From assembly GCA_964433905.1 (NCBI GenBank), contig CAYSSM010000001.1, positions 60,246-124,245 of the forward strand: a DNA stretch of 64,000 bases. Direction: 5' to 3'. A program made the translations under genes and the position numbers. The DNA is from an uncultured Candidatus Saccharibacteria bacterium. GTDB lineage: Bacteria; Patescibacteriota; UBA1384; UBA12157; JAENIV01. Positions 5,693-39,357 of this stretch are shown piece by piece. Each line of letters begins with the position of its first letter. Position 1 is the first letter of the stretch. Below the pieces are notes generated by a model. That model did not search any database. It was not told where the DNA came from and saw only the letters and a list, made by a program, of their open reading frames with translations.

Positions 5693-5704
5693 CAAATTAT
5701 GCCA

Positions 5705-5747
5705 CATCTGACAATACACATCGCAAGTGAATTAGCGGATGTGTCTT
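5705..5747. repeat. REP-like palindromic element, copy 1: CCACATC..ACACATCGCAAGTG..TTAGCGGATGTGTC.
   Basis: The inverted repeat ACACATC / GATGTGT lies directly 3' of the RAYT gene. Two related copies are at 6432-6475 and 39250-39300. Confidence 0.6.
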
Positions 5748-6431: not shown

Positions 6432-6475
6432 CCACATCGTTAAAGACACATCGCAAGTGTTTAAGCGGTAGTATC
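6432..6475. repeat. REP-like palindromic element, copy 2: CCACATCGTTAAAGACACATCGCAAGTGTTTAAGCGGTAG.
   Basis: It shares CACATCG..ACACATCGCAAGTG..TTAAGCGG with copy 1 and lies just 5' of the RAYT start. Confidence 0.55.
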
Positions 6476-6574: not shown

Positions 6575-6646
6575 GGGCCTGTAGCTTAGAGGAAAAGCGT
6601 TAGTATGGCATACTAAAGATCGCGAGTTCGAGTCTCGCCAGGTCCA
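6575..6646 (+). tRNA. tRNA-Ala (anticodon GGC).
   Basis: Cloverleaf folded by hand. The acceptor stem GGGCCTG/CAGGTCC carries the G3:U70 Ala identity pair. D stem GCTT/AAGC. Anticodon stem TTAGT/ACTAA with loop ATGGCAT (U33, GGC, A37). T arm GCGAG-TTCGAGT-CTCGC. Discriminator A73. No CCA is encoded. Confidence 0.85.
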
Positions 6647-20602: not shown

Positions 20603-20716
20603 TTAACCCTGACGCTGCTTATGTTTGGGAGTACTGCAAATTACCCGCAATACTCCATGACGGCGAATTATTTTACATTTTTGACAAATTTTTTTGACCG
20701 ATGGTCTTACTTTCAT
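20603..20716 (-). CDS. rpmJ: Ribosomal protein L36 (37 aa; not in the ORF track).
   Basis: Hand translation of the minus strand gives [37 protein letters not shown]. The stop TAA is at 20603-20605. Confidence 0.85.
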
Positions 20717-20772
20717 AAGTATAAATCCTTGGTTGACACCCTGTGGTCTTTGCCACAGGGGGATTTACAAAC
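20717..20772 (-). promoter_or_regulatory. Conserved leader/repeat immediately 5' of rpmJ with a perfect 8-bp hairpin (CCCTGTGG-TCTTTG-CCACAGGG).
   Basis: In sense orientation it reads TTTGTAAATCCCCCTGTGGCAAAGACCACAGGGTGTCAACCAAGGATTTATACTT-ATG. It shares the 15-nt GGATTTATACTTATG context with map. Confidence 0.4.
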
Positions 20773-21966: not shown

Positions 21967-22684
21967 CTTTTGTTACTGCGATTGTATGTTCAAAATGAGC
22001 CGATAAGGAATTGTCGATTGTTACAACAGTCCAGCCATCGTTAAGTATCTTTACTTTCCAATCGCCAGCTGAGACCATTGGTTCGATGGCCAATGTCATC
22101 CCCTCTTTTAAAACCGGTCCTGTTTTTCTTTTGCCAAAATTTAATATTGATGGTGGTTCTTGTAAATTTGTACCAATGCCATGTCCAGCCAAATCCCGGA
22201 TAATACTGTAATTTGCGCCTTCAATAATTGATTGAATACAATTTTGAATATCACCTAAATAAACTCCGGGTTTAATTTTTGATATGCCTTCGTGAAGCGA
22301 TTCTTTGGTAATTTTTAGCAATTGTTTTTTTTTAAAATCAATTTTACCGATAGCCACGGTGGCAGCGGTGTCGGTGTGATATGATTTCCATAATATTCCA
22401 ATATCAAGACCCAAAAGATCGCCCTCGCGCAAGATTCTGTTCGATGGTATGCCATGGACGACCTCATTGTTAACTGAAGTGCAAATTGTCGCCGGATAAC
22501 CATGATGACCTAAAAAAGATGATTTAGCACCGGATTTCTTAATTTCTTCTGTTGCGATGTTGTCAAGTTCTTTGGTAGTTGTTCCGGGTTTTGAAGCAAC
22601 AGTTAGTATATTTAAAATATGAGCGGCAATTTTACCACCTTCCTTCATAATTTGAATCTCTTTTTCTGTTTTAATCGAAATCAT
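21938..22684 (-). CDS. map: Methionine aminopeptidase type I.
   Basis: MetAP pita-bread fold motifs (..GHGIG.. and ..HFEHT..). Confidence 0.9.
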   Translation of the reverse strand: MISIKTEKEIQIMKEGGKIAAHILNILTVASKPGTTTKELDNIATEEIKKSGAKSSFLGHHGYPATICTSVNNEVVHGIPSNRILREGDLLGLDIGILWKSYHTDTAATVAIGKIDFKKKQLLKITKESLHEGISKIKPGVYLGDIQNCIQSIIEGANYSIIRDLAGHGIGTNLQEPPSILNFGKRKTGPVLKEGMTLAIEPMVSAGDWKVKILNDGWTVVTIDNSLSAHFEHTIAVTKDGVEILTHE

Positions 22685-22803
22685 AAGTATAAATCCATGG
22701 TTAACACCATATGGTCTCGGTCACAGTTCCATATATCTTTCAAAAAATAGTTTTTAATTTATATTAACGCCCTGCGGTCTCTGTCACAAGGGGATTTACA
22801 AAT
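22685..22803 (-). promoter_or_regulatory. Second copy of the rpmJ-type leader upstream of map, split by an insertion with the core duplicated.
   Basis: 22685-22726 AAGTATAAATCCATGGTTAACACCATATGGTCTCGGTCACAG and 22768-22803 ..CCCTGCGGTCTCTGTCACAAGGGGATTTACAAAT compare with 20717-20772. Confidence 0.35.
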
Positions 22804-22809
22804 ATGAAT

Positions 22810-23457
22810 TTATGTGGTTACTTTTTGGATATTTTCCCAAACTTTTTCGATCGAAGGATTGCCATCGACATTAATTAGTGTCCCTTTGTTTTTAAAAAAA
22901 CTAATTAAGGGTAATGTTTGTTGGTTATAAACATCAATTCTTTTTGTCAAAACAGCGAATTGGTCTTCAACGCGCACAACAAGATTGCCGCCACACCGAT
23001 CACACTTGGTTATTCCATTTTTGTTCGGATCTTCAAAAACTGTTTGACACTTGTCACACACTCTCCTTGTTTGCATCCTCAAAACCAACAATTTAGCATC
23101 GACAACCAAATTGATTACTTTAACATTGTTAATATGTTTTTTCGAAAGAATTTTTTCTAAATGCTCAGCCTGGGCGATAGTTCTTGGGTATCCGTCAAAG
23201 ACAACCCCGTGGTCAATTTCGAGTTCATCTACTTTTTTTGCAACAAATTTTTGTACCAATTCCTCTGAAATTAACTTGCCTTTACCTTCATCCCAAACCT
23301 TTTTAAATTCTAAACCTAAGGCAGTGTTCAGCTCTGCTTCCCGGCGCATTAAATCTCCGGTACCAAAATAAACATAATCAAGTTTATCGGCCAATTTACG
23401 GGCTTGCGTACCTTTCCCTGAACCAGGCGGTCCTAATATTATATAATTTTTTAGCAT
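22810..23457 (-). CDS. adk: Adenylate kinase (with a Zn-binding lid).
   Basis: P-loop GPPGSGKGTQ and lid CDKC..CDRCGG. Confidence 0.9.
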   Translation of the reverse strand: MLKNYIILGPPGSGKGTQARKLADKLDYVYFGTGDLMRREAELNTALGLEFKKVWDEGKGKLISEELVQKFVAKKVDELEIDHGVVFDGYPRTIAQAEHLEKILSKKHINNVKVINLVVDAKLLVLRMQTRRVCDKCQTVFEDPNKNGITKCDRCGGNLVVRVEDQFAVLTKRIDVYNQQTLPLISFFKNKGTLINVDGNPSIEKVWENIQKVTT

Positions 23458-23472
23458 AATTTACTCAGAAGT

Positions 23473-24096
23473 TTACGGTGAGGCTGTTGAAGAAGCAATT
23501 GGTGAAGGACTAACCACCGCAGAAGGTGACACATCAACATTTTCTTTTACTGCATCTATTAGCCAGATATTATTTTCTAATATGGTTTTAACTATTCTAT
23601 TAGTTGGATTGTTGGGATAATTTAATACAATCTTTGACTCAACCGTAGATTCGTCAATTTGTTTCGAGGAAGAAATTTGAAAGTCTACCGGTTTTTCCTT
23701 AACGGATAAGAATTGGTTAAGCTGAAGTAAAATATTGGAATAAAATTCACCTTTTTCGTCTTTATAGGTAGCCAATTTGGCTTGAGCAGAAATGGTCAAC
23801 AAGTCTTTAGCTTTACTTCCTTGGATTTTTCCTTCTTCAGTTGAAGAAGAATTACTCCAAAAATCTAAAAAACTTGTTACTACTTTTTCGGATTTTGTTT
23901 TCCATTCGGCTTCGGTAATATTAATATCAGGGCTGGAAGTTACTGCCGAACCGTTAACGATATAGGTTTTATAATACCAAAAACTGCCACCAATTGTCAA
24001 AGCGATAATGACAGCAATCACGAACCATTTTACAACATTACCTTCTGAAGGAATTGGAGACTGGTTATAAGAATTTTGATCCATTATACCTCGCAA
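23473..24096 (-). CDS. Hypothetical single-pass membrane / extracytoplasmic protein.
   Basis: TM helix WFVIAVIIALTIGGSFWYY, then a soluble domain with a Ser/Pro-rich C-terminus. Confidence 0.5.
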   Translation of the reverse strand: MRGIMDQNSYNQSPIPSEGNVVKWFVIAVIIALTIGGSFWYYKTYIVNGSAVTSSPDINITEAEWKTKSEKVVTSFLDFWSNSSSTEEGKIQGSKAKDLLTISAQAKLATYKDEKGEFYSNILLQLNQFLSVKEKPVDFQISSSKQIDESTVESKIVLNYPNNPTNRIVKTILENNIWLIDAVKENVDVSPSAVVSPSPIASSTASP

Positions 24097-24100
24097 AAAA

Positions 24101-24784
24101 TTACTGGGCTGGAATTATCATCTCAATTACCCAAATACCTTTATCGCCCTTCGTGATTGGCTGAATCAATTTTATTAAATATTTGCCATTTTCATTTTCA
24201 GCAATAACTTCGGCTTTGCCGCTATTAGTATCTTTGCTTTTTTGAGTATATGTATCTGTGATTTTCAAGCCGTATACATTTGGACCGTCGGCTCGAGCCG
24301 TATCTTCAGGACTTAAACGAAATTGATTTTTGCCAGTTTCGACAGCCGTTTGCAAGGTAGTCGATTTGCTGTTGTCTATTGTATAAGCAACTTGACCATT
24401 TCTTGGAATAATTAAAACTTGCCCGGCTTGCACTTTATCTTTATCGGTGATACCATTGGCGGCTGATAAATCTGTCAATGTCGTACCGTTTTTTTGAGCA
24501 ATAGCAAAAAGTGTTTCGCCTTGCTGAATGGTGTAAGTATCTGTCGGATGTGACGGTCTTTCATTTGCTGAAGTAGCCTTTGTCACAGTTGAATTATTAT
24601 CGTTCAAAGGCGAACCAGAAAGCACGCCAGTTGAAGAACTATCAGCTGTTTTTGTTTCAGCTGGCACCTTAGTTTCATCATTTTTTGTTGTGCGGCCATT
24701 AAAAAATAAAAATGTCGTACTTGCCGCCAGCAAGGCTACTAAAAAAACTAAGCTATAAAGCAATAATCTTGTTTGTTTAGCCAT
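24101..24784 (-). CDS. LysM domain-containing envelope protein.
   Basis: LysM YTIQQGETLFAIAQKNGTTLTDLSAANGI..GQVLIIP and an N-terminal TM. I chose the start at M9, where upstream TGGGGGTAAAA could serve as an SD. Confidence 0.6.
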   Translation of the reverse strand: MAKQTRLLLYSLVFLVALLAASTTFLFFNGRTTKNDETKVPAETKTADSSSTGVLSGSPLNDNNSTVTKATSANERPSHPTDTYTIQQGETLFAIAQKNGTTLTDLSAANGITDKDKVQAGQVLIIPRNGQVAYTIDNSKSTTLQTAVETGKNQFRLSPEDTARADGPNVYGLKITDTYTQKSKDTNSGKAEVIAENENGKYLIKLIQPITKGDKGIWVIEMIIPAQ

Positions 24785-24798
24785 TTTTACCCCCAATA

Positions 24799-25767
24799 TT
24801 ATTGCCAACCCAAGACTTGATTGCCTTTTTGGATTGGTTTTATTAAATCTTTATCTAATCGAACGATGTAAATTTGCCCTGTTGTATTATTATCGACTTT
24901 ATCTTTGTATTGGGCAGCAATATATGCTAAATTATTGTTCTTTAAATATACGAAATTTGCGATTCCACCACTTATTTCAGCAATTTCTTTTTCATTTTGG
25001 CCGTTTGTATCAATTTCGATTATTTTGGAAGATTTACCATTAAACGATCTTGTTGAAAGAATTATTTTATTGTTCGTAGATGAGATCCAATCAATTATCT
25101 TATTTTCGTAGATTTTAATTTGCGATTTTTCCTTATCGACAAGATCGATTCTATTTAATTCGGCATTATTACCAGACATAACCGAATATAAAATAGCATC
25201 TCCCTGTATATTCCAAGCAAAACTATTTATTTCCGTCTCGGAATTAGTCAAATTCCGGCGATTTTCTCCCGAAAGACTTTCAGTATATAATGTATAACCG
25301 TAGTTTTCTTCCAAATTAGAAAACTTAATATAAGCAATGGTTTTTCCATCTGGCGAAACGAGCCATTTTAGAGGTAACACAAACTCTTTTCTTATGGATT
25401 TAATTTGAGCATTATATAAATCAATGCTTATCAATTCACCTGAAGTTGCGCTTTTATCTTTTGCTACTATTGCCAAAACTTGATTAGACTGGCTAACCAA
25501 GTTTGACAAAGATATGATTTTTTTATTTTCATCAAAATCGGTAAAAACTTTTTTCCTGGCATCCCCATCAGTTTGCCATATTTCAAACGCGCTACCTTTA
25601 TTAGTATAGGTTAAAATTTCTGCAATTTCAGCGGTTTTTAAGGTCTTACTTTCACTAACACTTATTTCTTTAGATGTCTGTTTGTCTAAGTAATTAATAT
25701 TTATATACCAAGACAATCCTCCAATTACCGCCAGAAATAAAATAACAGTAATGATTTTTTGGGCCAT
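24799..25767 (-). CDS. TolB-like PD40 beta-propeller repeat protein with an N-terminal TM.
   Basis: The SPDGKTIAY PD40-type repeat and W..DGD segments recur. N-terminal hydrophobic helix. Confidence 0.5.
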   Translation of the reverse strand: MAQKIITVILFLAVIGGLSWYININYLDKQTSKEISVSESKTLKTAEIAEILTYTNKGSAFEIWQTDGDARKKVFTDFDENKKIISLSNLVSQSNQVLAIVAKDKSATSGELISIDLYNAQIKSIRKEFVLPLKWLVSPDGKTIAYIKFSNLEENYGYTLYTESLSGENRRNLTNSETEINSFAWNIQGDAILYSVMSGNNAELNRIDLVDKEKSQIKIYENKIIDWISSTNNKIILSTRSFNGKSSKIIEIDTNGQNEKEIAEISGGIANFVYLKNNNLAYIAAQYKDKVDNNTTGQIYIVRLDKDLIKPIQKGNQVLGWQ

Positions 25768-25864
25768 ACATATTCACTAATCTTGGTTACAATTACATCA
25801 AAACAAAGTAAGACCTTTAGTTGTTACTTTTAACCATAACTTATTGCCAGAAACATGACTAAGC

Positions 25865-26179
25865 TTATACCTCTGGTGATGTGGTAGCAGAAGGTGATAC
25901 CGATGGTGACGCAGACGGTGATGTCGATGGTGAAGCTGACGGAGAGGCGGATTTAGCTGGCGATGGACTTACGCTAGATTTTACCGTTGGTGATTTGGTC
26001 ACACTCGCGGTTGGTGACGGTGAAGTAGTGGGAGTCGACTTTTTGGAAAAGTTGGTGTAATAATACACACCACCTGCTACCAAGATAACTATCACCAAAA
26101 TGATTAATAGCCATTTTAGTGATCCGCCGCTTTGTGGAGCGGCTGTTGGTGCCGGCATTCCGGGTTGAGGTTGATTCAT
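25865..26179 (-). CDS. Small membrane-anchored protein with a Ser/Pro/Thr-rich low-complexity tail.
   Basis: TM WLLIILVIVILVAGGVYYY followed by (SPS/TSP)n repeats. Confidence 0.45.
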   Translation of the reverse strand: MNQPQPGMPAPTAAPQSGGSLKWLLIILVIVILVAGGVYYYTNFSKKSTPTTSPSPTASVTKSPTVKSSVSPSPAKSASPSASPSTSPSASPSVSPSATTSPEV

Positions 26180-26321
26180 AAAACCCTCCTTATATATTAT
26201 TATAGATGATTAGATGATAGGATCAATAGGGAATCGCCTATTTACCCGTTTATGTTTGTTCTAACCACCTTTTTATTAATATGTATCGTACTGACGCAAT
26301 TAGTAGCTGTGCCTGTAACTA

Positions 26322-26388
26322 GCTTTAATAATTCTCGTAGGATCGCATTAACAACTGTGCCTGTATTTGTCTCATTGTTTCTATTATA
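26322..26388. repeat. Exact 67-bp direct duplicate of the secY 3' end; the second copy is at 26445-26511.
   Basis: GCTTTAATAATTCTCGTAGGATCGCATTAACAACTGTGCCTGTATTTGTCTCATTGTTTCTATTATA is identical in both copies by inspection. A partial third fragment lies at 26305-26320. Confidence 0.8.
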
Positions 26389-26447
26389 TTTTGCCGAAGC
26401 AAAATTCGGAAATAGAAACAATATTTTTCAATAATTAACACTTGGCT

Positions 26448-27722
26448 TTAATAATTCTCGTAGGATCGCATTAACAACTGTGCCTGTATTTGTCTCATTG
26501 TTTCTATTATAACAGAAACCATAATTAAAATACCAGTGCCACCAATTACTAAAGTATTTATCTTAGTAATTGCCTGGATAATAAACGGCAAAACAGCAAT
26601 AACTCCAAGGAATAAGGCACCGGTAAGATTAATTCGAGAGATAATTCTTGCCAGATAAGATGAAGTTTCCCCTCCGGGTCTGACACCAGGGATAAAACCG
26701 CCTTGTTTTTGCAGATTTTCTGAGATTTGATTGGGTTTTAAAACAATCCCAGTATAAAAGAAGGTGAACAAGATAACTAATATAAAGTAGAAAATTCCAT
26801 AAAACAAATTGTTATTAAACAAATTAGCAACCCATGTAGAAGCGGAAGCGAGCCACTCTGAACGAGCCTGAGTCAAGACTTTAGCCGCTACCCCAGGAAA
26901 GATCATGATCGACATGGCAAAGATAATTGGGATGACCCCAGCGGTATTTACTCTGATTGGAAGATAAGAGTCAACTCCGCCGTACGATTTCATGCCGCGA
27001 ATGCGCCTGGCGTATGATACGGGTATTTGGCGCCGACCCTCATTAACAATAATAATTAAAATAACTACAGCAATAGCAATGAGCCCAAATAAGGCTAGAC
27101 TAATAATTTTAGTCGTATCCATAACTGCCAGCGTATTTCTTACTTGGGCAGGTACACTGGCAATTATTCCTAAGGCAATAATCAACGAGATACCGTTACC
27201 GATGCCATTTTCAGAAATTAATTCTCCAATCCACATCAGCAAGATCGTGCCGGCGGTAATCGAAAGTAACATTACCGCTAATTGGAGCGGCGTCCATGAA
27301 AACAATATCCCTTGACTTTTAAGCAAAGTTAACATGCTAAAAGATTGGATCAGTGCTAACGGCACGGTGATAATTCTCGTCCAGTAATTAATTTTTTTCT
27401 GACCTGATTCACCTTCCTTTCGAAGTTCTTCCAATGAAGGAATCACCATGGTCAAAAGCTGAACAATAATCGTGGCGGTAATATACGGTCCGACACCCAT
27501 CATAATAATCGAAAAATTTTCCATCGAACCGCCGGAAAACATATTTAATAAACCAAAAATTTGGTTTCTCGAGAAAAAAGTTCTCAAAGCTTCAATATCA
27601 ACACCGGGCAGAGGAATATGAGCTAAAACTCTCGTAATAACCATTAGACTAATAGTATAGAGAATCTTTTTTCTTAGATCAGGCAGGGTAAAAACTTGAT
27701 TAATTGTTTGCCAAATACGCAT
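26448..27722 (-). CDS. secY: Preprotein translocase subunit SecY.
   Basis: 10-TM SecY pattern. Position between rplO and (normally) adk. Confidence 0.9.
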   Translation of the reverse strand: MRIWQTINQVFTLPDLRKKILYTISLMVITRVLAHIPLPGVDIEALRTFFSRNQIFGLLNMFSGGSMENFSIIMMGVGPYITATIIVQLLTMVIPSLEELRKEGESGQKKINYWTRIITVPLALIQSFSMLTLLKSQGILFSWTPLQLAVMLLSITAGTILLMWIGELISENGIGNGISLIIALGIIASVPAQVRNTLAVMDTTKIISLALFGLIAIAVVILIIIVNEGRRQIPVSYARRIRGMKSYGGVDSYLPIRVNTAGVIPIIFAMSIMIFPGVAAKVLTQARSEWLASASTWVANLFNNNLFYGIFYFILVILFTFFYTGIVLKPNQISENLQKQGGFIPGVRPGGETSSYLARIISRINLTGALFLGVIAVLPFIIQAITKINTLVIGGTGILIMVSVIIETMRQIQAQLLMRSYENY

Positions 27723-39249: not shown

Positions 39250-39300
39250 TTTCTATCCTTTAGACACATCGTTATATCCACATCGTAAGTGTATTAGTAG
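39250..39300. repeat. Solo REP-like palindromic element, copy 3.
   Basis: AGACACATCGTTATATCCACATCGTAAGTGTATTAGTAGATGTGCTC shares CACATCG(N7)CACATCG(C/T)AAGTG and the CACATC/GATGTG inverted repeat with 5705-5747. Confidence 0.55.
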
Positions 39301-39357
39301 ATGTGCTCTTTCCTTATTTAGATGCTATTTTATGTTCTCGACTATGCTCGAACTAAA

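Follow-up and report, generated by a model that had tools for sequence, protein, structure and literature searches.

Islands, ICEs, and IMEs that integrate in gene 3′ ends leave direct-repeat att sites and rebuild the gene, and their tandem accretion gives rise to CIMEs. In diversity-generating retroelements (DGRs), VR/TR pairs place a repeat of a gene 3′ end nearby. Translational coupling or attenuation by alternative RNA pairing is exemplified by the long-range coat–replicase pairing of MS2 and by the ermC leader. In the orphan 3′-end arrays of Rhs, CDI, and T6SS loci, a conserved 5′ body serves as anchor, a new 3′ end lies next to the gene, and older ends are pushed downstream, where they decay; close relatives differ in copy number and content, and anchored recombination has been proposed to displace the gene 3′ regions serially (PMC5361080). 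Transformation is able to generate tandem duplications via alternative pairing at repeats (PMC3784515), and for Patescibacteria natural competence is described in Saccharibacteria (PMC10633639).

The 3′ end of secY in the window—the whole 64-kb stretch of DNA that was analyzed—shares its layout with these displaced 3′-end arrays: the gene is intact, it is followed by serial 3′ fragments, and the furthest of them is truncated and decayed. However, the 3′ ends of Rhs, CDI, and T6SS arrays are different toxins, each with immunity-gene cargo, whereas all copies in the secY arrays encode the same tail peptide, their only "cargo" is a palindromic spacer of 41 to 86 nt, and the gene is an essential housekeeping gene. 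With att-site islands, the locus has in common that a gene 3′ end is duplicated, that the gene stays intact, and that tandem site arrays are possible. Unlike att sites, the secY repeats do not flank inserted genes, lie 56 nt apart with no integrase found, and comprise the full 63 to 67 nt up to the stop, with copies in other genomes diverging synonymously. Transformation-triggered merodiploidy offers a further likeness, since incoming homologous DNA pairing at a repeat can create or resolve tandem units—by analogy, such a formation of tandem units is plausible in naturally competent Patescibacteria. Known events nevertheless span 100 to 900 kb between IS copies, while the secY unit measures ~0.12 kb and the process is inferred.

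The likeness to MS2 and ermC is one of layout only: three to four mutually complementary segments, one of them hiding a downstream start and open to release by an upstream ribosome; the ORF or start signal and the regulated gene are only hypothetical here. As in DGRs, a copy of the last part of the gene lies just downstream with a hairpin adjoining. A DGR is nonetheless rejected, as the substitutions are of all types and fall on third codon positions instead of being adenine-specific, no RT is found among the locus genes, and the peptide is invariant. The palindrome GTTTCAATT...AATTGAAAC is reminiscent of CRISPR repeat ends; a CRISPR array, with short direct repeats of 23 to 47 nt and unique spacers of about their size, was discarded because a locus has just one or two such palindromes and always the same 70- to 80-nt tail plus linker between them. 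A MITE/REP-like or DNA-uptake motif was dismissed as well, the spacer core being unique in the window and AATWGAAAC being found 6 times against 3.6 expected. A literature search for secY partial duplication or Berkelbacteria secY gave nothing relevant.

The repeated secY end in the window

The window bears one extra 123-bp unit in tandem before an identical tail and an older decayed tail (Table 1). Hereby, the original prediction of an exact 67-bp duplication of the secY 3′ end with 56 bp in between is confirmed: two exact direct copies with a start-to-start distance of 123 nt are present, and these are the only two 67-nt copies in the window, against 0 expected from shuffles. The repeat unit consists of the last 20 secY codons and the stop, followed by the 56-nt spacer; copy 1 is made up of 1 nt, 20 sense codons (IIETMRQIQAQLLMRSYENY), TAA, and AGC. 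A further fragment, earlier placed at 26305–26320, is real as well: CTGTGCCTGTA is found at 26307–26317, within a third tail copy that is truncated and bears indels. This copy 3* is decayed by substitutions and indels and adjoins copy 2 without a spacer. The SecY product of the window is 100% identical to the protein named SecY of Berkelbacteria GW2011_GWB1_38_5. Copy 2 is in frame with secY without an intervening stop in this genome only; readthrough into a SecY with a doubled tail was rejected, since relatives have another frame or stops in between.

Table 1 Features around the 3′ end of secY in the window
Feature	Position	Strand	Basis
secY CDS, 424 aa	26448..27722	minus	ORF and translation; Pfam SecY on identical protein
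Tail copy 1 (resident): last 20 secY codons, TAA, and AGC	26445..26511	minus	exact 67-nt repeat, reading frame checked
Tail copy 2 (extra), identical to copy 1	26322..26388	minus	exact 67-nt repeat
Tail copy 3*, truncated (start near codon I411)	26277..26320	minus	nhmmer, tail profile, model positions 23–65, E=2.9e-6
Quasi-palindrome GGTTTCTGTTATAATAGAAAC within secY, codons VSVIIET	26500..26520	minus	sequence inspection; inverted repeat I4
O element AATAGAAACAAT, included in quasi-palindrome GGTTTCTGTTATAATAGAAAC	26497–26508	minus	sequence
Spacer linker	26423..26444	minus	sequence unconserved; 13–25 nt long in all related arrays
Spacer arm ATTGTTTCTATT	26411..26422	minus	12/12 complementary to O element of either tail copy (inverted repeats I3, I4)
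Internal loop TCCGAA	26405–26410	minus	RNA folds
Inner hairpin TTTTGC-TTCG-GCAAAA	26389..26404	minus	RNA folds
51-nt composite hairpin: arm, inner hairpin, and first codons of copy 2 (IIETM, including ATG)	26373..26423	minus	fold
Cassette ORFs	23473–26179		
adk	22810–23457		

Three origins had been considered for the repeat: a recent duplication, an assembly artefact, and an integration footprint. An artefact is ruled out, because the 190-nt structure is identical base for base in three independent assemblies—NCBI LBUX01000001.1 (Berkelbacteria GW2011_GWB1_38_5), a JGI assembly, and an ENA MEGAHIT k141 assembly—that were made by different assemblers, two of them with k-mers exceeding the repeat in length. 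A fourth contig, from this same species (L141), lacks exactly one 123-bp unit and carries copy 3*; its SecY is 99.8% identical, and a single nt differs over the final 1,260 nt of secY that were compared. Hence, the 123-bp unit looks like a presence/absence polymorphism within the species. Together with the 100% identity of the two copies in the window, this variant supports their recent duplication or homogenization.

The integration footprint, ascribed to a four-gene cassette, did not stand up. ORFs indeed lie between secY and adk as described, but both repeat copies lie on the secY side of them, 56 nt apart, and the window has no further copy, also not near the far cassette end at 23473. The cassette—encoding a small PS-rich membrane protein, a beta-propeller, and a LysM protein—also lies 3′ of secY in single-tail relatives such as L149, L146, L011, L041, and L005, and, therefore, cassette and repeat are independent. 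The cassette is found throughout the clade and has no relation to the repeat, and a cassette-integration scar is rejected, as relatives have the cassette without the repeat. A link between duplication and insertion is essentially refuted, the duplication being a feature that recurs across the clade. The genes called within ±5 kb encode ribosomal proteins, SecY, the cassette, adk, map, and PIG-L, with no integrase among them, and a motif heuristic—a weak one—gave no tyrosine recombinase in 51 ORFs of the window. An attP of a phage or plasmid was ruled out, too, since neither tail nor spacer had a match in phage, plasmid, or viral contigs (IMG/VR patterns, INPHARED, and PLSDB).

The composite hairpin has an MFE of −17.3 kcal/mol (z = −6.96), and equally good folds were found in 0 of 200 shuffles. 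A Rho-independent terminator is rejected on its appearance: the hairpin is A+T-rich and followed by coding-like sequence, with no G+C-rich stem and U tract. A scan of 26189–26520 likewise gave no terminator-like site. Searches with Rfam 15 returned only chance-level matches for 26150–26650 (E>3, none at gathering score) and no match at the spacer of eight related loci. A tandem-inversion-duplication origin was excluded, as the palindrome centre is not secY sequence. Arm and hairpin may constitute an element acting on the secY transcript, be it in 3′-end formation, in stability, or in insulating secY from the envelope genes that follow; with the direct repeats on either side, the same element could also render the site recombinogenic.

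Tail copies and spacers in related Berkelbacteria

Arrays with one or two extra secY tails are present in 19 of the 39 nonredundant related Berkelbacteria lineages of this sample. When every ORF of 80 aa or more in the window and the first 140 loci was screened, such a repeat was found at secY only, and no locus outside the clade bears it. Spacers homologous to that of the window occur in L069, L116, L150, and L078, and 18 other lineages show the same architecture. Copy number and spacer type vary between close relatives (94–98% SecY identity): one or two units are found within the species and one to three among these relatives, resembling a minisatellite. L069 carries three identical units, and the copies are identical within five arrays. 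The order in L061 and L078 is that of the window, with intact tails first and a truncated or degenerate one thereafter; old copies without a spacer (copy 3* in the window, the third copies of L061 and L078) are all truncated or degenerate. The unit of the window is best explained as a member of a fast-turnover structure that is confined to one Berkelbacteria clade.

Resident and extra copies differ almost exclusively by synonymous changes (pS=0.49, pN=0.02; pooled over the first 14 arrays). Among the spacer-associated extra copies, 22 of 23 are intact—with the stop retained and no indels—and the sole disabling change is a TAG in the second copy (c2) of L007. Neutral decay following one old duplication is thereby rejected (pN/pS ~0.04, p ~1e-42). 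An antisense ORF does not explain the codon pattern either, as first-position changes in Arg and Leu codons are silent only in the SecY frame.

The tails further show traces of exchange. The secY genes of L071 and L145 are ~97% identical, yet their 3′ third including the tail has patches with 10 to 14 mismatches per 45 nt. Tail alleles are common to different species, well beyond the similarity of their flanks: c2 of L145 and the resident tail of L076 are 94% identical with flanks of 74 to 80%, c2 of L143 differs from the resident tail of L149 at 3 of 66 nt with flanks of 78%, and c2 of L142 matches c1 of L061 at 94% with flanks of 72 to 75%. In the trio L149/L143/L066, the downstream copy and its flank align with the functional end of the single-copy relative. 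Random import from any clade member was rejected, since extra copies match the tail peptide of their host far more often than random resident pairs do at equal nucleotide distance; this case is weakened by the fact that sister species have tails in common.

The spacers themselves are structured. In each array spacer, the arm is complementary to the first tail codons (IIETM) and a small covarying hairpin is present. Of 23 spacers in related arrays, 20 form a hairpin equivalent to that of the window; across the arrays, z ranges from −2.2 to −7. Formed by the spacer and the start of the next copy, these hairpins span 33 to 75 nt and are located 13 to 25 nt past the stop codon. Covariation links the arm to the O element in the copy before it (247 matches vs 233.6±2.8; 23 spacers, 5000 permutations). 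Within secY, synonymous-site conservation over 31 clade genes is maximal at the quasi-palindrome, with 0.64 to 0.66 vs a background of ~0.40. The spacers of L063 and L068 are identical at 47 of 48 positions, while secY third positions are 70% identical. The 24-mer TTCCGAATTTTGCTTCGGCAAAAT of the inner-hairpin region is unique in the window and recurs without change in L069 and L116, which are distant lineages; in the first 140 loci, exact matches to the type-1 spacer 24-mer are confined to the secY end.

Proposed origin of the repeated gene ends

We propose, at what we judge to be an even chance, that recombination displaces secY gene ends one after another and exchanges them, and that it does so around a palindromic 3′ element that is conserved and whose role is putative. 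Local unequal crossing-over or gene conversion would initially create identical copies, as in the window, and homologous recombination with alleles of related species would subsequently swap one copy, with the stretch immediately upstream (codons ~397–411), which is unusually conserved, as anchor. Copy pairs would then differ only synonymously because each imported tail had been a working gene end. Recombination between direct repeats would delete units, giving the single-copy variant of the same species, and unrefreshed copies such as 3* would decay. With these steps, the downstream copies would be former or imported gene ends and not a cassette scar. Several points speak against such recombination. 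Refreshment must far outpace neutral decay in all 19 lineages, given that a single one of the 23 spacer-associated extra copies is disabled. The strong spacer conservation, the stop distance of 13 to 25 nt, and the origin of the first spacer are left unexplained, and so is the persistence of arrays in about half of these streamlined genomes, where direct repeats should be deleted. By the RecA rules of model bacteria, tails that differ at every third base would, moreover, be inefficient substrates. The stop of the last tail is followed in the "S" subclade, after 3 to 22 nt, by the start of a gene without a Shine–Dalgarno sequence, for which a translated last copy is the better fit.

It is also possible, though not what we would expect, that spacer and extra tail form a selected functional module of an undescribed kind—either a structure-gated mini-ORF or a dedicated ~0.12-kb mobile unit with its own gene end. 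Both versions would account for the 22 of 23 intact copies, the hairpin at 13 to 25 nt from the stop, and the persistence in half of the clade. The mini-ORF version would provide a peptide that acts in regulation or as a relay and links the translation of secY with the envelope genes behind it, or a free SecY-tail mimic. Here, translation of the extra tail would start at the conserved ATG (M408) or at a near-cognate codon right behind the hairpin, yielding a 16- to 22-aa SecY C-tail peptide or simply bringing ribosomes to the envelope gene that follows. The arm would act as a switch: pairing with the next copy hides the start of that copy, which is freed when the arm pairs with the resident tail or when a ribosome terminating 13 to 25 nt upstream melts the arm. 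This translation is suggested by the purifying pattern at the codon level with its intact copies, including the silent first-position changes (AGA/CGT and TTG/CTG), by the sequestration of IIETM and the ATG in the hairpin, by a linker that is constrained in length and not in sequence, by the strong spacer conservation, and by the gene spacing in the S subclade. We nevertheless consider it unlikely. The extra copies lack a consistent preceding Shine–Dalgarno sequence or start codon, their frame relative to secY varies (0, +1, +2), in-frame stops occur one to two codons before the copy in L008 and L061, and c2 of L007 contains its internal TAG. The truncated third copy of L078, which has no start, is equally biased toward synonymous changes (8 vs 1 non-synonymous), a synonymous-only pattern also arises when working tails are imported, as is observed directly, and ORFs of the extra copies were never called by gene callers.

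The mobile version appears still more doubtful. It envisages a tiny non-autonomous or att-type unit of 104 to 149 bp (tail and palindromic spacer), moved by a site-specific recombinase or another hairpin-recognizing enzyme encoded elsewhere in the genome, that would integrate in the secY 3′ end with a replacement gene end like the islands targeting 3′ ends, so that arrays are accretions. All spacer-associated units indeed have a common 5′ boundary at codons 403–405, their ends resemble inverted repeats (O element and arm), and their junction is palindromic over 33 to 51 nt. Spacer types are discordant with the SecY tree, close relatives carry different units, and a 36-nt core is nearly identical between lineages whose synonymous divergence is saturated. 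In addition, preservation of the tail coding sequence is required of any element that turns into the gene end as it arrives. On the contrary, no recombinase is seen at the locus or in the window, no larger cargo-bearing form was found in ~40 lineages, and spacer and tail are absent from the rest of the window, viral contigs, phages, and plasmids. With its 15 to 25 nt, the palindrome centre exceeds the length of a classical tyrosine-recombinase core, and the unconserved linker next to a conserved core argues for selection on the core and not for a recent transfer of the whole unit. Finally, the identical copies and the same-species variant without one unit would suit a private, one-off tandem duplication by replication slippage without wider meaning, as the identity would suit an artefact. 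Either is barely credible, given the same architecture with homologous spacers in 18 other lineages and the concordance of three assemblers, two with k-mers beyond the repeat; simple tandem duplication also predicts an A-B-A-B order, whereas A-B-A followed by an older decayed copy is seen.

Meaning for Patescibacteria

The ends of secY and of the ribosomal operon serve as phylogenetic markers and binning anchors, and where tails are reiterated and exchanged, gene calling, marker trees, and strain resolution can be led astray. The spacer, for which Rfam gave no match, is a noncoding element that is structured and strongly conserved. If spacer or extra tails are functional, they would represent a new wiring of secY and envelope gene expression or a new minimal mobile unit. 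If displacement and exchange by recombination hold true, the locus would be a compact natural record of how frequently DNA is exchanged and reshuffled in uncultivated ultra-small Patescibacteria. This exchange would extend even into an essential gene and connect species with no more than 75 to 80% identity, and the "displaced gene end" pattern of polymorphic toxin loci would extend to a housekeeping gene.

The repeated end of secY in the window

The loci and lineages compared here carry handles such as L001, the window's own secY, and "tail" denotes the last 20 secY codons with the stop. Copy 1, the resident one, comprises 1 nt, the last 20 sense codons (IIETMRQIQAQLLMRSYENY), TAA and AGC, and is repeated exactly as the original prediction had it. 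The further 16-nt fragment noted there falls within a third, partial copy (c3*), which lacks the first ~nine codons and bears substitutions and indels. No additional 67-nt copy was found elsewhere in the 64 kb, where none is expected by chance.

Features of the secY 3' end and of the spacer between tail copies 1 and 2
Feature	Position	Strand	Description
secY	26448-27722	minus	424 aa
Tail copy 1	26445-26511	minus	exact 67-nt direct repeat
Tail copy 2	26322-26388	minus	exact 67-nt direct repeat, 56 nt from copy 1
Third partial tail copy (c3*)	26277-26320	minus	directly after copy 2
Linker of spacer		minus	22 nt
Arm of spacer	26411-26422	minus	12 nt, perfect complement of AATAGAAACAAT (inverted repeats I3, I4)
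Internal loop of spacer		minus	6 nt
Small inner hairpin		minus	TTTTGC-TTCG-GCAAAA

The same 190-nt structure is present base for base in three assemblies—NCBI LBUX01000001.1 (Berkelbacteria GW2011_GWB1_38_5), a JGI contig and an ENA MEGAHIT-k141 contig, the latter two encoding a SecY identical to the window's. Hence, the assembly artefact initially considered is rejected, while recent duplication holds for the two copies of this genome. In L141, a MEGAHIT k127 contig of the same species (SecY 99.8% identical; 1 nt difference over the last 1,260 nt of secY compared), the secY stop and AGC join the decayed third copy directly. Exactly one 123-bp unit of tail plus spacer is absent there, so that the species seems to be polymorphic for the presence of this unit; the single-unit state may also be a collapse in a short contig.

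The repeat had further been suspected to be the border scar of an integrated four-gene envelope cassette—a PS-rich membrane protein, a beta-propeller, a LysM protein and one unknown. This finds no support, as single-tail relatives also have the cassette, which lies wholly downstream of both copies. In more distant relatives (L009, L010, L059) secY directly precedes adk, and the cassette is therefore an old, clade-level insertion. Its Pro/Ser-rich gene (25865-26179) contains a 24-nt tandem repeat (25878-25925) and has, in the near-identical strains L001 and L002, lengths that an in-frame indel of 30 bp sets apart (104 aa vs 94 aa). Some lineages bear an extra ~85-105-aa ORF between the secY tail(s) and this gene (L063, ~2150-2480; L076 and L082, just after secY), whose product, judged by eye from its translation, may be coiled-coil-like. 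Gene content at the junction after secY is variable.

Elsewhere in the window, map and a second gene on the minus strand are each preceded by copies of an intergenic module (20713-20771 and 22681-22802, 85% identical). The module combines a G+C-rich hairpin, CCCTGTGG...CCACAGGG, with an RBS-like stretch after it, and has the look of a terminator/leader unit put to repeated use. A family of 44-nt repeats, 70-75% identical (CCACATC...GCGGATGTG), occurs at 5702-5745, 6432-6475 and 39264-39307, with two copies just upstream of tRNA-Ala (6575-6646).

Spread of the arrays and anatomy of the spacer

Loci of secY were taken from GTDB species genomes, JGI metagenomes and exact-protein look-ups, with redundant contigs removed. 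The clade comprises Berkelbacteria whose SecY is at least ~65% identical to the window's and bears the tail motif ET[MI]RQ.Q.Q..MR.Y..Y. One or two extra tails directly follow secY in 19 of its 39 lineages, among them the curated, complete CP011213 and the chromosome-level MAG OY969116 with three copies. An extra tail is absent from all of the ~100 loci that belong to other Patescibacteria or to Chloroflexi, and secY is the only ORF of 80 aa or more that repeats its own end in the first 140 loci and the window. Across the arrays, copies recur with a period of 104-149 nt, the frame of the extra copy relative to secY is not constant, and the native downstream gene is always contiguous with the last copy.

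All spacers are built alike. A linker of 13-25 nt with no conserved sequence comes first, then an arm that is the complement of the codons opening the tail, and last a short hairpin. In the window, the arm is complementary to the codons IIETM (AATAGAAACAAT) with which every tail copy begins, and a single 51-nt hairpin (MFE -17.3 kcal/mol, z = -7) takes in the arm, the inner hairpin and the beginning of copy 2. Such a single hairpin, 33-75 nt long, is formed in 20 of 23 spacers, with z from -2.2 to -7 against shuffles for 14 representatives. The inner stems vary by lineage yet stay paired (TTTTGC/GCAAAA, TTTCGC/GCGAAA, AATTC/GAATT, AAATC/GATTT, CAGCG/CGCTG and one G+C-rich). Also, where the preceding copy varies at wobble positions, the arm follows—AATAGAAAC/GTTTCTATT, AATTGAAAC/GTTTCAATT, AATAGAGACAATG/CATTGTCTCTATT—a match reached by 0 of 5000 permutations; the arm is closer to the preceding copy in 8 cases and to the next in 2. 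The spacers of L063 and L068 are identical at 47 of 48 positions, whereas their secY third positions are only 70% identical, and a core 24-mer is the same in L001, L069 and L116 despite saturated synonymous sites in secY; the adjoining linker is not conserved. No Rfam family matches the spacer hairpin, no terminator-like site was found at the spacer, and its core has no second occurrence in the window. Conservation, covariation and a fixed distance from the stop argue for a functional spacer, most simply a putative RNA hairpin acting at the 3' end of the secY transcript. With direct repeats on either side, the palindrome might of itself favour recombination.

Within secY, synonymous-site conservation among 31 clade genes peaks at codons ~397-411 (0.64-0.66 vs ~0.40), a stretch of the TM10 coding region that forms the quasi-palindrome GGTTTCTGTTATAATTGAAAC (window 26500-26520). 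This hints at a constraint at the nucleic-acid level even in single-copy genomes. The single-copy L006 and L080 carry, in the first ~75 nt after secY, a spacer relic of linker, 13-nt arm CATTGTTTCAATT and half the inner hairpin, without a second tail; their relative L005 has none. In one subclade, a ~295-aa beta-propeller gene lacking a Shine-Dalgarno sequence starts 3-22 nt past the stop of the last tail (L112, L083, L148, L008, L070, L072, L074, L146, L078), and its translation looks as if coupled to termination at the tail. Upstream of secY, five loci (L142, L146, L147, L148, L150) have no ribosomal-protein genes, secY being therefore detached from the spc operon, and L008 (Berkelbacteria GWE1_39_12) bears a SAM riboswitch ~2.5 kb away (2382-2494; 49.4 bits, above the gathering score).

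Divergence and exchange of tails

The copies are identical in five arrays, including the window; in the remaining ones, up to 15 of 54 positions distinguish the resident from the extra copy, and nearly all of these differences are synonymous. The first 14 arrays taken together give a pS of 0.49 and a pN of 0.02 (binomial p ~1e-42 against neutrality), and first-position changes in Arg and Leu codons identify the constrained frame as that of SecY. Only one of 23 spacer-associated extra copies bears a disabling change (TAG in L007); truncation or degeneration is seen in the copies that directly adjoin another with no spacer in between (window c3*, L061 c3, L078 c3*). The synonymous-only divergence and the intact extra copies rule out one ancient duplication that then decayed neutrally. 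Two accounts of the pattern remain: extra copies would be under coding selection, or would have been working gene ends until recently. An extra copy agrees with its host's tail peptide more frequently than do resident tails that are paired at random and equally distant in nucleotide sequence; tails are common to sister species, and this match therefore does not discriminate between the two.

That recently working gene ends are displaced is directly shown. Copy number and spacer type differ among relatives 94-98% identical in SecY (L066 vs L143, L071 vs L145, L004 vs L142, L083 vs L148, and L070, L150 and L146 with 2, 3 and 1 copies). Between L071 and L145, secY is ~97% identical over the 5' two-thirds, and its 3' third, tail included, shows patches of 10-14 mismatches per 45 nt—a recombination mosaic. 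Copy 2 of L145 is 94% identical to the resident tail of L076 (flanks 74-80%), that of L143 differs from the resident tail of L149 at 3 of 66 nt (flanks 78%), and that of L142 is 94% identical to copy 1 of L061 (flanks 72-75%); different species thus have tail alleles in common far beyond the similarity of their flanks. In the trio L149, L143 and L066, the downstream copy and its flank align with the functional end of the single-copy relative, so that the newcomer is the resident tail with its spacer and the downstream copy is the displaced original. Copy 2 of L008 and of L066 are mosaics with a foreign 5' and a host-like 3' part, and in L068, not in its sister L063, the extra copy is overwritten by the resident sequence.

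Origin of the arrays

We give an even chance to a scheme in which arrays arise via local duplication, imported tails, unit deletion and decay of unrefreshed copies. Identical units, as in the window, would stem from local unequal crossing-over or conversion, and working tails of relatives might enter by homologous recombination, for which conserved sequence immediately upstream would serve as the anchor. Direct-repeat recombination would remove units, as in L141, and copies no longer refreshed would decay, as c3*. Patescibacteria (Saccharibacteria) are naturally competent (PMC10633639), which makes it plausible that foreign DNA is taken up. Tandem duplications via alternative pairing can come from transformation (PMC3784515), and for T6SS and Rhs loci a model exists in which the 3' regions of genes are displaced one after another (PMC5361080).

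That the tail–spacer module is functional or mobile in a manner not yet described is possible, in our estimate, at a clearly lower level. Translation of the extra tail as a structure-gated mini-ORF or relay would fit the codon-level pattern, an ATG sequestered by the hairpin, the constrained linker length and the closely following genes of the beta-propeller subclade; it is unlikely, however, as start signals are absent, frames vary, stops lie upstream, the L007 copy contains a stop, and a truncated copy has the same synonymous-only pattern. Less probable still is a tiny non-autonomous mobile or att-type element, moved by some enzyme. Its constant 5' boundary, ends resembling inverted repeats and a spacer distribution departing from the host tree count in favour; against it count the absence of a recombinase (among locus genes and in a motif search of window ORFs) and of cargo-bearing forms, and the failure to find copies at other places in the window or among viral, phage and plasmid sequences. 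That the repeat is an artefact or a slippage event private to this genome is hardly credible.

Our literature search found no description of reiterated secY ends. The pattern resembles the displaced 3'-end arrays of polymorphic toxin loci; unlike there, an essential housekeeping gene is hit, the peptide stays identical across copies, and the sole intervening sequence is a conserved palindromic spacer. In this clade, the secY tail is a hotspot: gene ends there undergo duplication and homogenisation, pass between related species, are pushed downstream and are lost by deletion.
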